NCBI GenBank assembly: GCA_012730105.1
Contig: JAAYBJ010000299.1
Location: 1-14,811, forward strand
Direction of reading: 5' to 3'
Length of the DNA stretch: 14,811 bases
Source: Candidatus Hydrogenedentota bacterium
GTDB lineage: Bacteria > Hydrogenedentota > Hydrogenedentia > Hydrogenedentales > CAITNO01
A program made the position numbers and the translations under genes. Within the stretch, counting starts at the first letter, position 1. Each line of letters starts with the position of its first letter. Positions 273 through 14,811 of this stretch are shown here, in pieces. A model generated the notes under the pieces. It saw only the letters and a list, made by a program, of their open reading frames with translations, did not search any database and was not told where the DNA came from.

Positions 273-358
273 ACTCCAAATATTTTCTTTTTGGGTTGTG
301 GGCAAGGCCCACGTTAGTATAAAACAACTTAACCGGATTGGGTTTTTCACAAAACATC

Positions 359-437
359 TCGATTACGAGATACGATCACGAGCACGAGCATGAATCGCAC
401 AATCGTAGTCATGCTCGTACTCGTAATTGTAATCGAA
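359..437. repeat. Large imperfect palindrome (~78 nt) with arms TCGATTACGAG..TCACGAGCACGAGCATGA / TCATGCTCGTACTCGTAATTGTAATCGA; a related copy of the arm motif recurs at 13376-13399
   Basis: Seen in sequence: left arm and the reverse complement of the right arm align at both ends (CGATTAC.. and ..ACGAGCATGA). The motif TCGATTACGAG + TCACGAGCACGAG is found again about 13 kb away. Confidence 0.6.
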
Positions 438-5664: not shown

Positions 5665-5874
5665 CACACGGACTTGCACAACGACTGGATAGTATCGCGC
5701 AAAAGGATGGTTGTGCCCTTCGCGTCCTGAGCCCGTTTGGCCAAATTTTGCGGATTAGAAATAGGCCGGGAAAAACGGGCATAATATAGTAAGGAATTGG
5801 AGTTTTGGTGGTTCCGCTGAAACAAGCAGGCGGAATCGCTGTACTCTCAGAACCATCTTAGGAGGAATAGAAGT

Positions 5875-7120: not shown

Positions 7121-8491
7121 ATGCGCGAGTATGCCATTTTGCTGGATGCCAAAAAAATGCCGGATGCCTGGTATAACATATTGCCTGACATGCCCTCCCC
7201 GTCCGCACCGGTGTTGCATCCGGCAACGCAACAGCCGGTGTCTCCCGAAGACCTGGCGGCCATTTTCCCCATGGGTCTGATTGAACAGGAGATGAGCCCC
7301 AACCCGGAAATTTCCATACCGGGTGAGGTGATGGACCGTTACCTGATGTACCGGCCCACCCCGTTGCGCCGCGCGTACCGCCTGGAAGAAGAACTGAAGA
7401 CACCGGCCAAGATTTACTACAAGAACGAGAGCGTCACGCCTTCGGGCAGCCATAAGATCAATACCTCGATTGCGCAGGCCTATTACAACATGGTTGAAGG
7501 TGTGCATTCGCTCAGTACGGAAACCGGCGCCGGACAGTGGGGTACCGCCTTGTCCATTGCCTGTTCCATGTACAACATGCAGTGCAAGGTTTACATGGTC
7601 CGCGTCAGTTTCGAGCAGAAGCCTTACCGCAAGGGCTTCATGGAAGCCTTCGGCGCCACCGTAATAGCCAGTCCCAGTGATACCACGGAAGTCGGGCGTA
7701 AAATCCGCGAGGACAATCCGGGAACCACCGGCAGCCTTGGCATGGCCATTTCCGAGGCCGTTGAGGTCGCGGTGACCAGCGGCGGCAAGATCAAGTACAG
7801 CCTGGGCAGCGTGTTGAACCACGTCTGCATGCACCAGACCATCATTGGTGAGGAAGCCAAACTTCAGATGGACAGTGTGGGCGACTACCCGGACATCGTG
7901 ATCGGCTGCTGCGGCGGCGGGTCCAATTTCGCCGGTATTTCGTTCCCCTTCGTGAAGGACAAACTGAAGAAAGGGCTTAAGACCGAATTCATCGCCGTGG
8001 AACCGGCCGCGTGCCCGACCCTGACACGTGGACCCTATGCGTATGATTTCGGTGACACCGGGAAGCTGACGCCTTTGATGAAGCAGTATACCTTGGGCCA
8101 CAATTTCGTGCCGCCGGGCATTCACGCGGGTGGGCTGCGGTATCACGGCGTCGCACAGACGGTTGCCCACCTGAAGAAGGACGGGGTTATTGACGCGCGT
8201 GCCTTGTATCAGAATCCCTGCTTCAAAGCAAGCCTGTTGTTCGCCAAGTGTGAAGGCATTCTTCCCGCGCCGGAATCGGGACACGCGATATGCGCCGCAG
8301 TAGATGAGGCGGTTCGCTGCCGGGAAGCGGGAGAAAGCAAGACGATTCTCTTCAATCTGAGTGGTCACGGCCACTTCGACGTCGCGGCGTATGACGCTTA
8401 TCTGCGTGGTGACCTGCAGGACTACGATCTGGATGAGGAAATCCTTGAAAAAGGAAGACAAAGCATCCCGGACGTCAAAGAACCGGCATAA
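7121..8491 (+). CDS. trpB2: TrpB2-type tryptophan synthase beta-subunit paralog (PLP-dependent)
   Basis: 456 aa. N-terminal [12 protein letters not shown] and PLP-lysine motif [14 protein letters not shown], plus Gly-rich [10 protein letters not shown], are characteristic of the long TrpB2 clade. AAAGGA RBS is about 10 nt upstream. Confidence 0.88.
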
Positions 8492-10811: not shown

Positions 10812-12665
10812 TTACTTCGCCAGTTTTTCGATGACCCTTGCGATACGGGTGCGCTGTTTTTCGATGGGCGCGGGATCCTTGGTATAGGTGCGTGCGTCGC
10901 GGGCAATGGCTTCGGGCACTTCCAGCAAGTTGCGGTAGCGGGCCTTTTCCTGTTCAGACAGGCCGTTAGCAGGATTGTCGAGTGCCTGTTTCAGCAGGAC
11001 GAGGTACTCGTAGTCCTCGACACCGTCGCGCAGCATTTCCCAGCGGATACTGTCCACCGGTCCGTCCAGCACGGGCCGGGCGGGCTGGGCGTCAGCCGCG
11101 GCCTCCGGCGGATACATGAAGCGACCGTCCCCGTTGCCCCAGGGCCGCTTTTCACCGGGCTTGGTGCCGTATCCGGTCATCCAGGACATGGTGTCCTCAT
11201 AGGGGTTCTGGGGCTGGTCCGGGTAGGCCATGCCCGTGGTCCAGAGGTTTGAGTGCCAGATCAGGATGCCTTCGATGCCGTACATCCACGTTTGCCAGAG
11301 CCAGGCGCGCAGGTCCGTGGCGGGGTGGTCGATGAACAGGCCAGGGTAGGGTTTCTTGGGGACCGTGCACACATACCACCAGAAATGTTCGCCGGCGTTC
11401 CGGCGCGCTTCCGCCTTTTCGTGGTTATAGGCGGAAATCAGGGGACACCACAGGTTCGGCCCGCCGATGAGGCCGGGCTCTATCTGTTCGGTGAGCATGA
11501 GCGCGATGTCGGGTACGGCCGCCTGGAGTTGCCGGAAGCCCTGCATGACCGCAGGGTAGTCCGACTCCGCCGGTTCGTCATACCAGTAGATATACGCTTC
11601 GTCCAGCAAGCCCTTTTCACGCAGATGCTCCTGCACGGTGTTGCCGTAGGTGTTGAAGGCCAGTTCATATTCGCGGGAGCCCGCCGGAAACCCTTGGTAT
11701 TCGCCCGCATTAATGCCGGGAATGCCGAGGCGGAAGGAATTGAAATGGAAGGTGTCAAAGGTGCGCTGCATTTCCCGGTCCCAGTCCGCCCAGTCGATTG
11801 CGGGGGTCAGGGCGTTTTCCTGGAACAGCCTGGCGTCTTCCGGGGATAGCCCGGCGCAGGCTTCCGGCGCGCGTTTGGTCCAGGACACGGCCGGGGAGAT
11901 GCCCGGGGTGGAACAATAGGGGGTGATGCGATGGTCGCGGAAACTTGCCCAGTACTTGTCCAGCACGAGGCGCCGCGCTTCGGGGTCGATGAGTCCCTGG
12001 TACTGGTACACGGTGTTCGCATTAAAGCCGAAGGCCGTGGTGCAGGAGGCGCGATCCGGCAGTTCAAAGCCGTACACCCGCACGCGCAGGGGGATATCGG
12101 CGGCAAAGCCGTTGGCCCGCAGGGCGATCGTTCCCTCATAAACGCCGGATGGAACCTCCTTGGGGGCATAGACCCGAATCCAAAGGGGCTGGTTCTTGTT
12201 CGCGCTGAGGGCGAGCGGCCCCTGGAACGGGGGCAGCGGATCCGGCCACGGCGCGGATGCGCCCCAGCCGTCCGAAGGACGCTCCACGGTCACATACCGC
12301 ACCCGCAGCACTTCCACGCACTCCGCCGGAATCTGGCTGCCGCCGGGGCCGGTCAACGGTCCCGCCGTTGCCGTAAACCCCGTGAGATCGCTGCAGGGTT
12401 GAACGACCAACTGCGCGGCTTCCCGTTCATTCCGTGCCAGTTCAATCCACACGGCTTTGCCCGTCCGGGTCGGCACGGCGCGGTCCCGGGCCACCTTCCA
12501 GCCTGAAGAGGCCCACCATAGCGCCACGGTGTCGGAACCGCTTTCCAGCCGTTCCCCATAGTCTTCTGAAAAAAGGATGCACGGTTCCGTGTGCCGAGCG
12601 CCGAAAGCCGCGCCGCCGAGCACTGCCAGAAAAACACATCCCCATAAGCAAGGTTTAGACAACAT
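10812..12665 (-). CDS. Secreted DUF4091/GH123-like putative glycoside hydrolase
   Basis: Signal peptide MLSKPCLWGCVFLAVLGGAAFGA. AGGAGA RBS is 7 nt upstream of ATG 12665. Trp-rich catalytic-domain-like region (YWYDEP, WWYVCTVP) resembles the DUF4091/GH123 family. The family assignment is from memory and moderate. Confidence 0.6.
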   Translation of the reverse strand: MLSKPCLWGCVFLAVLGGAAFGARHTEPCILFSEDYGERLESGSDTVALWWASSGWKVARDRAVPTRTGKAVWIELARNEREAAQLVVQPCSDLTGFTATAGPLTGPGGSQIPAECVEVLRVRYVTVERPSDGWGASAPWPDPLPPFQGPLALSANKNQPLWIRVYAPKEVPSGVYEGTIALRANGFAADIPLRVRVYGFELPDRASCTTAFGFNANTVYQYQGLIDPEARRLVLDKYWASFRDHRITPYCSTPGISPAVSWTKRAPEACAGLSPEDARLFQENALTPAIDWADWDREMQRTFDTFHFNSFRLGIPGINAGEYQGFPAGSREYELAFNTYGNTVQEHLREKGLLDEAYIYWYDEPAESDYPAVMQGFRQLQAAVPDIALMLTEQIEPGLIGGPNLWCPLISAYNHEKAEARRNAGEHFWWYVCTVPKKPYPGLFIDHPATDLRAWLWQTWMYGIEGILIWHSNLWTTGMAYPDQPQNPYEDTMSWMTGYGTKPGEKRPWGNGDGRFMYPPEAAADAQPARPVLDGPVDSIRWEMLRDGVEDYEYLVLLKQALDNPANGLSEQEKARYRNLLEVPEAIARDARTYTKDPAPIEKQRTRIARVIEKLAK

Positions 12666-12944
12666 AATCTTTCTCCTGGTTGAAAACAAGCCTTTATATA
12701 CTTGACCGGATTTCGGGAAGGAAAGATTCAAGAAATGAGCCATAAAGGTATTCAGGGATAGTCCTTCATGAGGCCCCGCAGTTTTCCCGTAAAGGAAGAA
12801 AATGTAGACGCGGCATTCTTGGCGCGTTGGAAGTGGCTGGAAGCCGTTTCTACATTCATTGAGTACAACATTTTTATTTACGGTGAGTTAGATAAATTAT
12901 CGAGGATGCCGCGGACAGGCACCAGCGCGTTATGGCGGGTCGTC

Positions 12945-12970
12945 TGGTTCCCAAATTCCTATTTGGGAAC
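12945..12970. repeat. Perfect hairpin GGTTCCCAAAT-tcct-ATTTGGGAACC (copy 1 of a GTTCCCAA palindrome family)
   Basis: Seen in sequence: 11-bp stem, 4-nt loop. Confidence 0.7.
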
Positions 12971-13032
12971 CGCCTTTGCACACGGTCAATACACATAGCA
13001 TTCCGGGAACCGTGGAGAAGGGACGAAAGAGA

Positions 13033-13082
13033 GAAATGGAATTTCAAGAGAGAGTGGGTTCCCAAATAGGAATTTGGGAACC
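13033..13082. repeat. 21-nt direct repeat GAAATGGAATTTCAAGAGAGA (second copy 13313-13333) immediately followed by hairpin GGTTCCCAAAT-agga-ATTTGGGAACC (inverted orientation of copy 1)
   Basis: Seen in sequence. The loop agga is the reverse complement of tcct in copy 1. The direct repeat recurs 280 bp downstream as GAAATAGAATTTCAAGAGAGA. Confidence 0.7.
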
Positions 13083-13210
13083 AGGGAAAACGAAAAACGT
13101 CGCGAAAGAAGTTTCGTGCAAAATTGCAGATGCTGGCGCAGTGGCTGCGGTACAATTGCATATTCCGCGCGCGAGCGCCTGATTTGGTCTATGCGAGCGG
13201 GTTGCTTTAC

Positions 13211-13241
13211 GCTCGTTCCCAAGTTGCACTTGGGAACGAGC
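13211..13241. repeat. Related perfect palindrome GCTCGTTCCCAAGT-tgca-ACTTGGGAACGAGC
   Basis: Seen in sequence: 14-bp stem sharing the GTTCCCAA/TTGGGAAC core with the other two hairpins. Confidence 0.65.
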
Positions 13242-13312
13242 TTGCCCGCGAAGTTTTACTTCGCAACCCTGGTAAAGCGCCGGAATACACCGGTCGGACC
13301 GTTGCGAAAAGG

Positions 13313-13399
13313 GAAATAGAATTTCAAGAGAGAAAAAACTCATAATTCGTAATCGAGTTTCTATTGCGTTTTTTGTCGATTACGAGTCACGAGCACGAG
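13313..13399. repeat. Second copy of 21-nt direct repeat (13313-13333) followed by dyad ATTCGTAATCGAG/TCGATTACGAG and the TCGATTACGAG-TCACGAGCACGAG motif shared with the glyA-upstream palindrome
   Basis: Seen in sequence: 11+13 nt identical to positions 359-369 and 376-388, with a 6-nt indel between the two blocks. Confidence 0.6.
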
Positions 13400-13491
13400 T
13401 CGCGAAGGCGAAATACTAGGGGCGTCGGGTTGCGGGCAACCATGCGTTGCTTATGTAACGCCTCCTCGGAATCCCAAGGTGGGCAACCCCG

Positions 13492-13830
13492 CTATTCCTC
13501 CGTCGGGGGCATGCGGAGTTGTTTTATTCTGCTGCGCAACTGCTTGCTGCGCAGGCGCTTGGCCTTTGCCGAACGGCTCGGCCGCGTGGGGACGCGTGGT
13601 TCCGGGACCTGCCGCAAAGCTTCCAACCGCCGCAACAGTTCTTCGTAGGCCGCTTCTTTATTCTTTAACTGTGACCGTGAACCGGTCCGCACCACCACAA
13701 TGCCGGTAGGCAAATGCCGCAGACGCACGGCCGAATCGGTCGTATTCTTCTTCTGTCCCCCGGGCCCATGGCTGCGGAAGAAGGTGTATTCCAAGTCTTG
13801 TTCTTGAGGTATGTTTGTGTCGGCACCCAT
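13492..13830 (-). CDS. arfB: Alternative ribosome-rescue factor ArfB (YaeJ-like peptidyl-tRNA hydrolase, GGQ motif)
   Basis: FFRSHGPGGQKKNTTDSAVRLRH GGQ domain, followed by a basic C-terminal tail RVPTRPSRSAKAKRLRSKQLRSRIKQLR matching the ArfB consensus tail (...RPTRPTRASKERRL..K..). Confidence 0.8.
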   Translation of the reverse strand: MGADTNIPQEQDLEYTFFRSHGPGGQKKNTTDSAVRLRHLPTGIVVVRTGSRSQLKNKEAAYEELLRRLEALRQVPEPRVPTRPSRSAKAKRLRSKQLRSRIKQLRMPPTEE

Positions 13831-14450: not shown

Positions 14451-14811
14451 CGTGTTCTGAGCCAATAATGCCTGTAACAATGCTTACCGTCATTGTATCA
14501 CGTTGTAAATCATGGTCGCCAATGAAGGCGCGAAAAAATAAATTGGGAACCAAGGGCAAGTACCTTGATTTTCACGGATCAAGCGGGAGTAGAAAGATAA
14601 GGGTGCCTGCCGCCATTACCCATTTCGCCACCTAAATTGAGAGCACGAAACCGGTTGCTGTACCATAAAGACTCGGGTGTCGGTAACTAACGTGGGCGTT
14701 GCCCACAACCCAGAAGATCCTCCGTTGAGATGAATTGATGCGCCGCCATGTCCCAGAATATGGTTTTTCCACAAAAACCCGACAAAAAGGACAGACGGCG
14801 CATGAATATGA

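Follow-up and report, generated by a model that had tools for sequence, protein, structure and literature searches.

A palindrome upstream of glyA in a Hydrogenedentota bacterium is probably a copy of a dispersed tandem-hexanucleotide hairpin repeat found in more than ten bacterial phyla

Introduction

An imperfect palindrome of about 78 nt (positions 359-437) lies upstream of glyA in a Candidatus Hydrogenedentota genome, and part of it recurs 13 kb away. We asked what these two sites are and whether they control the genes between them. The window, by which we mean the whole 14,811-nt stretch of contig JAAYBJ010000299.1 (assembly GCA_012730105.1) that was analysed, had been annotated initially from its letters alone, and the recurrence had been attributed either to a dispersed palindromic repeat family or to sites bound by one common regulator on either side of this gene block. 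We refer to the palindrome as site 1 and to the recurrence at 13376-13399, together with its inverted partner, as site 2.

Site 1 precedes glyA (603-2129, + strand), which encodes an SHMT of 508 aa, and site 2 lies between a GH123 gene (10812-12743, − strand) and a gene for an arfB-like RF-1-domain protein (13492-13830, − strand). The window also carries genes for a CoA-binding protein, a PP2C phosphatase, an alginate-export porin, EncFtn with encapsulin and a PLP enzyme, with RmlD, PI-PLC and two small toxin-antitoxin-like genes on the − strand. The window gave no match to a tRNA or to an Rfam family. The SHMT extends past the Pfam SHMT domain at both its N and C termini, and its 508-aa length is common to Hydrogenedentota homologues. 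Its nearest named homologues are labelled as Candidatus Hydrogenedentota. The gene order glyA-CoA_binding-PP2C-alginate_export is kept across the clade.

Results

Both sites are built from one hexamer-repeat module

The 11-mer TCGATTACGAG was found exactly at 359-369 and 13376-13386 on the + strand, with an inverted one-mismatch copy at 13346-13356. The 13-mer TCACGAGCACGAG was found exactly at 376-388 and 13387-13399, with an inverted two-mismatch copy at 414-426. Allowing up to one mismatch, TCGATTACGAG matched the window four times against 0.22 expected, and none of 200 shuffles reached four. Written in register, site 1 reads TCGAT-TACGAG-a-TACGAT-CACGAG-CACGAG ... CTCGTA-CTCGTA-ATTGTA-ATCGA and site 2 reads ...ATTCGTA-ATCGA, a spacer, and TCGAT-TACGAG-t-CACGAG-CACGAG. 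The exact matches confirmed the initial observation that the motif pair recurs with a 6-nt indel, and the 6 nt proved to be ATACGA, which is one hexamer repeat unit. The two motif blocks are one tract of hexamer units and not independent motifs.

At site 1 the left arm (358-390, + strand) contains the exact motifs and matched the family profile HMM described below with an E-value of 2.5e-9. The right arm (412-438, − strand), the two-mismatch inverted copy, reads TCGAT-TACAAT-TACGAG-TACGAG on its own strand and matched at 1.8e-6. Between the arms is the hairpin centre (391-411), where the inverted repeat and the folds extend the stem by CATGA/TCATG and leave a loop at about 394-408. A scan for repeat units alone placed the tracts of site 1 at 371-388 (+) and 402-425 (−). 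At site 2 the right arm (13375-13399, + strand), again with exact motifs, matched at 1.6e-6. Its partner, the left arm (13338-13357, − strand; CTCATAATTCGTAATCGA on the + strand), is a decayed module that holds the one-mismatch inverted 11-mer and gave a weak HMM match with an E-value of 0.076 (13347-13356, −). The site 2 arms are separated by a spacer of about 17 nt (13358-13374), and the fold leaves 19 nt unpaired in the loop. The two main tracts of the window each carry a 1-nt phase slip and are thus slightly decayed family members.

Both sites are intergenic and non-coding, and both have an inverted partner within about 150 nt (13346-13356 on the − strand and 13376-13399 on the + strand for site 2). 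The region 359-437 is an inverted repeat that folded as DNA with −21.3 kcal/mol (z −4.8) and as RNA with −33.3 kcal/mol (z −5.5) on the + strand and −42.6 kcal/mol (z −6.9) on the − strand, so the imperfect palindrome reported initially is real. The dyad that had been noted around the second site (TTCGTAATCGA, 19 nt, TCGATTACGAG) was likewise present in both sequence and fold.

The module is a family found in more than ten phyla

We scanned one genome per species for 185,579 species with the pattern TCGATTACGAG-N0-12-YACGAGYACGAG. At least 120 genomic stretches matched, against about 0.9 expected by chance according to our own arithmetic (2 x 5.96e11 x 13 x 4^-21 x 2^-2). Among the matches listed, the gap between the two blocks was 0 nt in 91, 6 nt in 22, 12 nt in 11 and of another length in 4. 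As 124 of these 128 gaps were 0, 6 or 12 nt, the underlying object is a hexamer tract. The matches came from more than ten phyla, and those listed included 40 from Planctomycetota, 25 from Verrucomicrobiota, 10 from Acidobacteriota, 9 from one FCB-group MAG and 8 from Hydrogenedentota, with fewer from Desulfobacterota, Nitrospiraceae, Riflebacteria, Gemmatimonadota, Sumerlaeia, Kiritimatiellae, Fibrobacterota and Anaerolineae. Cultured isolates and contigs of 0.1-1.4 Mb were among the matches listed.

The module consists of TCGAT, a first unit TACGAG and 2-4 further units, giving 3-5 units in total of the form YACGAK or NACGAK. Later units are mostly CACGAG, then TACGAG, TACGAT or CACGAT, and a frequent ending is CACGAA or CACGAT. 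The ACGA core is strongly constant and variation is confined to unit positions 1 and 6. The flanks of the family loci that we compared showed no conservation outside the module. Of the tracts not chosen via the search pattern, 47% were still capped by CGAT. The 11+13-nt identity of the window sites is the family consensus.

A profile HMM was built from 74 modules of other genomes and then run on the window. It matched exactly the four arms of the two sites and nowhere else, and family membership was therefore tested and not assumed. Inverted pairs of modules among the matches listed were arranged with TCGAT inward in 65 cases and outward in 11, and the arms of site 1 have the rarer outward arrangement (11 of 76 pairs). 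The spacers of inverted pairs were 15-150 nt long and the predicted hairpins had a mean MFE of −47 kcal/mol. The modules were mostly intergenic and lay between convergent genes in 22 cases versus divergent genes in 11 (matches listed, with crude ORF calls). A dispersed palindromic repeat family, the first of the two initial proposals, was thus found, with at least 120 stretches in more than ten phyla and usually as inverted pairs.

These counts also bear on whether chance or low sequence complexity could explain the recurrence. The units are simple, so part of the 13-mer identity comes from unit structure and not from a copied 24-mer. Against this stand the shuffle tests, the E-values of the family HMM and the excess of genomic matches over expectation. 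The chance reading is already refuted, and the initial judgement that the recurrence is far beyond chance stands.

We tried a coding explanation and rejected it. Peptides of the types HEHE..., (LV)n and RARA... could be read from the tracts, but no frame was consistently open, spacer lengths were spread 30/18/17 over the three classes modulo 3, and some inserts shifted the frame. Rfam searches of the window and 16 family loci at gathering and relaxed thresholds found nothing relevant, with sub-threshold miRNA-precursor noise at 369-431. The searchable literature, queried by sequence strings and by topic, held nothing on the hexamer module. Acido-Lenti-1 RNA (RF01687) matched one locus (L051) of a tract-rich MAG, where it is a different repeat at a distance of 1 kb. 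That match covers 7635-7695 and 7806-7845 of the locus with 37.4 and 25.8 bits. The Akkermansia muciniphila label of this MAG looks doubtful because of its repeat content.

Both copies in the window are specific to one lineage

Site 1 was identical in four contigs from other samples that encode an identical SHMT, and site 2 was identical in four strain-level contigs from other samples in which nearby bases vary. Four lineages whose SHMT is 80-85% identical lack the tract and have a Macro-domain gene about 100 nt before glyA. In a fifth lineage, with an SHMT 87% identical, the spacer upstream of glyA is 535 nt long and full of other repeats, and the tract is again absent. Upstream of glyA in all five relatives only a promoter, TTGAA(A/C)-N17-18-GTAcTATA, could be aligned. 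In the window this promoter is TTGAAA-18-TACTAT (517-546, + strand), identified by promoter scan and by alignment of six lineages. Site 1 lies 80-158 nt upstream of its conserved −35 box (517-522), within repeat-rich DNA, 1 kb or more in length, that this lineage has gained.

Relatives at 84-88% identity have no site 2 after the arfB-like gene, and one of them (L266) does keep the adjacent GGTTCCCAAAT... palindrome and the GAAATTCTATTTCCC motif. No clear tract copy was found in about 140 kb of the relatives' loci. The two copies are thus specific to this Hydrogenedentota species, where they appear from these alignments to be insertions or expansions and not conserved regulatory sites.

The proposal of binding sites for a common regulator was not supported by this comparison. 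Site 1 is absent in all relatives examined, site 2 is absent at 84-88% identity, and the neighbouring genes elsewhere are unrelated. A local regulator is also unlikely because the same repeat is intergenic across many bacterial phyla. The idea that copies might lie at conserved intergenic positions failed in the same way, as the relatives' regions upstream of glyA and downstream of the arfB-like gene have no tract. The initial annotation had counted against itself the outcome that the two copies are the only ones in the genome and are not conserved in orthologous intergenic regions of relatives; such conservation was indeed absent, and the copies were far from unique.

We also considered site 1 as a cis-regulatory RNA or leader of glyA, such as a riboswitch, an attenuator or a small peptide (...SITRYDHEHEHES... 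or MNRTIVVMLVLVIVIE...). Its place upstream of glyA, its very stable fold and the short ORFs that cross it would suit such a role. However, site 1 is upstream of the conserved promoter at 517-546 and not within a leader, it is missing from every relative examined, and it matched no Rfam family, including the ZTP and THF riboswitches. The family as a whole is free of frame constraint, and in some copies a mini-hairpin insert longer by 4 nt interrupts any frame. This reading is very improbable and already close to refuted.

Site 2 may form a terminator-like hairpin

As RNA of the − strand, the sense strand for the arfB-like gene, site 2 folded with −23.1 kcal/mol (z −3.0), and the + strand gave a z of only −0.5. 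In the − strand RNA 13338-13357 pairs with 13376-13394 in an 18-bp stem that begins about 95 nt past the stop codon, and a U6 run (13333-13338) follows immediately, about 155 nt after the stop codon, in a terminator-like geometry. Three of the stem pairs are G.U pairs that exist only in the − strand RNA and would be A.C mismatches on the other strand. A simple terminator scan missed site 2 because its 19-nt loop exceeds 8 nt. The long stem and the U6 run on the sense strand therefore probably mark a transcript 3' end, and site 2, from its predicted structure, may double as a terminator-like 3' hairpin of the arfB-like transcript.

The stem of site 1 is followed, after 5 nt, by no more than a split U-rich stretch. 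At most site 1 would insulate the glyA promoter from upstream read-through, and we infer no further role for it.

A terminator function is not general in the family, because most members among the matches listed have no U run after the hairpin. A co-opted 3'-end hairpin at site 2 is thus a plausible exception within the family, judged by modelled folds. Hairpin stability showed no sense-strand bias relative to the neighbouring genes (n=16, p=0.32) and thus gave no sign of selection for RNA pairing. Covariation between arms revealed nothing beyond the consensus, and the arms of one pair were no more alike than arms across loci.

Tracts are dispersed and vary in unit number

In about 810 kb flanking the matches listed we found about 20 further independent tract clusters, or about one per 40 kb. 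In 579 kb of metagenomic loci fetched via an unrelated motif, tracts were found again at about one locus per 85 kb. The window itself has two copies in 14.8 kb. The number of units varied between otherwise identical contexts (L144 versus L252), and several of the matches listed were at contig ends. Genes adjoining the modules elsewhere are unrelated housekeeping genes. Association with tRNA genes was weak (3 of 60 loci).

Spread as a non-autonomous mobile element of the MITE or REPIN type was weighed against these data. Here the hairpin arms would be recognised in trans by a transposase, for example of the HUH/Y1 IS200/IS605-RAYT kind, and horizontal transfer of such a transposase would explain the spread across phyla. 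Whole elements including their spacers recur within one genome (CAMCXS01 loci L014/L051 and L032/L054/L064/L084, and the samp_4449 copies), presence and absence vary among close relatives, contigs break at copies, and a related Hydrogenedentota contig (L008) has a gene with a weak Y1_Tnp match that is itself not flanked by tracts. However, consecutive tracts 0.3-3.5 kb apart enclosed HAD hydrolase, LexA, PhzF-like, oxidoreductase and similar genes, with no transposase between or beside the pairs. Site 1 shows no target-site duplication (flanks CAAAACATC / AAAAATTTC), and the GTAG/CGTC tag of REPs is missing. Viral contigs gave only 4 matches in 2.9 million (IMG/VR), which makes a phage origin unlikely, and BLAST against plasmids gave none, where the low-complexity filter may mask the query. 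We consider a transposase-driven element of this type quite unlikely.

Other small repeats share the same intergenic regions

The window and the family loci contain further repeats, which we describe here as observations of their own. A second hairpin motif, GGGTTGTGGGC-NNN-GCCCACGTTAG, is present at 289-318 (+) and 14686-14715 (−), with a 6-bp stem, a 3-nt loop that varies freely and unpaired flanks that are constant. The two copies are in inverted orientation and enclose nearly all of the window. This hairpin was found in at least 120 metagenome stretches (termite-gut, sludge and sediment), often 5-25 nt before an SD and ATG, with no orientation bias. Viral contigs lack it, as do all 120 listed genome loci of the hexamer tract, so it is lineage-restricted. 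It is present in the Hydrogenedentota-like assembly JAEAMG01, and four contigs (L003, L004, L149 and L180) break in it. It matched no Rfam family and nothing in the literature searched. In six loci (L144, L178, L223, L230, L252 and L253) a hexamer tract ends 8-20 nt upstream of this hairpin on the same strand, in a fixed modular order. The order in the window is reversed, the hairpin at 289-318 being followed by the tract 40 nt downstream.

The last 122 nt at the far end of the window (14687-14808) are 100% identical to 11439-11560 of a metagenome locus (L201), at the end of contig Ga0123335_1003365, the rest of which is unrelated. That both contigs stop at the same point of a shared 122-nt end suggests a multi-copy element with the GGGTTGTGGGC hairpin as its inner boundary. 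A related upstream segment occurs in another locus (L149).

At the near end, the 289-318 motif is immediately preceded by a long hairpin (196-274, GTATGTTGTTCACGC...GTGTGAACAACATAC). The composite 153-319 is 93-95% identical in metagenome contigs L182 and L213 (also L158), where a different sequence follows. Inverted ends CGTCATTCCGGTTTTTCGCG ... CGCGAAAAAACCGGAATGACG delimit a MITE-like unit of about 220 nt in this species and its 87% relative, at 1-14 in the window, at about 246-266 and 466-490 in L002, and at about 5790-5812 and 5990-6012 in L005. L002 also has a tandem duplication of about 480 bp upstream of the window start.

The arfB-like gene and GH123 are separated by a 748-nt non-coding island packed with repeats (12744-13491). 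It includes two perfect inverted copies of GGTTCCCAAAT(TCCTA/AGGAA)TTTGGGAACC at 12944-12971 and 13057-13084, a direct repeat AAGAGAGAAATGGAATTTCAAGAGAGA at 13027 and 13307, and a hairpin CGCTCGTTCCCAAGTTGCACTTGGGAACGAGCT at 13211-13241. The GGTTCCCAAAT palindrome and the AAGAGAGAAATGGAATTTCAAGAGAGA direct-repeat motif types are kept in the relative L266.

In many tracts of other genomes (L014, L017, L032, L034, L045, L054, L071, L083, L085 and L093) we observed an insert of the form CACC-[mini stem-loop]-TGAGCAC, with a stem of 2-5 bp, whose length differs by steps not divisible by 3, and compensatory changes (GC..GC, GT..AC, AT..AT, GTCC..GGAC). A large hairpin with this insert in both arms would form a four-way junction. 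Heptamer arrays often flank the hexamer tract or the GGGTTGTGGGC hairpin, with such units as (CGGTCAC)n, (AACCAAG)n, (CAGCTAA)n, (ACCTCAA)n, (CCAAGNC)n, (ACTGAAC)n and (TAGCCAC)n, in eight genome loci (L011, L020, L023, L048, L087, L102, L123 and L129) and three metagenome loci (L175, L185 and L194). The intergenic DNA of these phyla looks assembled from short-unit arrays.

Discussion

Both sites are probably copies of a dispersed, non-coding tandem-hexanucleotide module, a hairpin repeat of the STRR/REP-like kind. Two such modules in inverted orientation would give a long hairpin with several possible pairing registers, and the 6-nt indel between the sites would be one unit gained or lost, as replication slippage predicts. 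The copies lie in intergenic DNA that has grown in this lineage and is full of other small repeats. Like STRR and REP sequences, the module would form hairpins or cruciforms, spread and turn over in genomes, and be mostly neutral or selfish. Where transcribed, it would give a very stable stem-loop, which may block 3' exonucleases or stop RNA polymerase.

STRR sequences of heterocyst-forming cyanobacteria are short tandem units in intergenic DNA that form hairpins and have no known function, and roles in transcript stability have been proposed for them (PMC2670836). The hexamer module is similarly a tandem array of short units, intergenic, and able to form a hairpin when arrays face each other, and in other genomes its tracts are often flanked by heptamer arrays of the STRR type, such as (CGGTCAC)n and (AACCAAG)n. 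However, the STRR unit is 7 nt and that of the module 6 nt, the module has a fixed start (TCGAT-TACGAG) and 3-5 units, and the STRR families were described for one cyanobacterial group, whereas the module is common to more than ten non-cyanobacterial phyla.

REP and REPIN sequences are stem-loop units of 20-40 nt with an unpaired GTAG or CGTC tag at the foot, for which termination and mRNA stabilisation have been proposed (PMC3733652). Like the REP/BIME/REPIN group, the module gives dispersed extragenic imperfect palindromes, often as inverted dimers that form larger hairpins, and its presence varies between relatives. Its excess of convergent over divergent positions also matches the REP bias. 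In contrast to REPs, single arms of the module are not palindromic or stem-loops but tandem hexamers that can pair in shifted registers, with no evident link to RAYT, and neither GTAG nor CGTC was found at either foot of 359-437 or 13338-13394. REP families are also mostly specific to a species or genus, whereas the sequence of the module is conserved across phyla. MITEs have terminal inverted repeats and a target-site duplication; at site 1 inverted arms are present and no direct repeat flanks them. Site 2 resembles an intrinsic (Rho-independent) terminator in its − strand 18-bp stem and U6 about 95 nt past the arfB-like stop codon, and differs in its 19-nt loop; the U run is absent at site 1 and in most family members among the matches listed.

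Operator arrays of short repeated units are known for Fur (GATAAT hexamers) and MetJ (tandem met-boxes). The hexamer arrays resemble these in having short units placed head-to-tail 3-5 times, sometimes in both orientations, and might be sites of a DNA-binding protein that reads NACGAK units cooperatively, either a shared regulator or a nucleoid-associated or genome-structuring protein. The constant ACGA core with variation at unit positions 1 and 6 and the narrow range of 3-5 units fit this, and one sequence in more than ten phyla suggests recognition by something conserved. The arms of a pair need not match each other, which fits reading by a protein better than strict base pairing. However, operator arrays hold conserved positions at the promoters of a regulon, whereas the hexamer tracts show no positional conservation beside orthologous genes and neighbour unrelated housekeeping genes. 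At an estimated density of about one per 40-85 kb, the tracts are too frequent in positive genomes to mark a specific regulon, a period of 6 bp puts successive units on different faces of the helix, and we identified no candidate protein. Cooperative reading by a protein is accordingly an unlikely explanation of the arrays.

The module as a dispersed hairpin repeat leaves one property that stands apart. The same 23-35-nt sequence across anciently diverged phyla is unlike the usual output of slippage or of species-specific REP and MITE families, and a conserved protein, a mobilising enzyme or a mutational bias may lie behind this constancy. The neighbouring genes and the flanks of site 1 yielded no transposase, target-site duplication or empty-versus-filled site. 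Tentatively, and at less than even chances, the module may represent an undescribed cross-phylum class of modular intergenic elements whose constancy is kept by a conserved trans-acting factor or by interaction with RNA polymerase. Possible factors are a nuclease or transposase that reads the tract hairpin and mobilises it, or a DNA- or RNA-binding protein that reads NACGAK units. Such a factor would account for the occurrence in distant phyla of identical 23-35-nt sequences that begin in a defined way and have 3-5 units, and also for the fixed 8-20-nt spacing of the tract to the second hairpin in some lineages. In a possible variant the arrays would be pause or termination devices for RNA polymerase, an enzyme that is universally conserved. 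The elemental pause consensus of RNA polymerase is G-10, Y-1, G+1, and (CACGAG)n and (CTCGTG)n would repeat it every 6 nt.

For this genome, annotation of the palindrome as an operator or riboswitch of glyA should be avoided, and the two sites do not mark out a set of co-regulated genes. The element that is truly conserved in the control of glyA is the promoter at 517-546. More widely, the module defined here is intergenic in many poorly studied phyla, has no Rfam entry and is absent as a sequence from the searchable literature. It breaks metagenome assemblies and could trick motif-discovery pipelines into false regulons. Its category is ordinary, and the constancy of its sequence across phyla appears to be both undescribed and unexplained. 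If a conserved factor reads or moves the module, that factor would open a new way to study how genomes are organised or transcript ends are formed in Planctomycetota, Verrucomicrobiota, Acidobacteriota and related groups.
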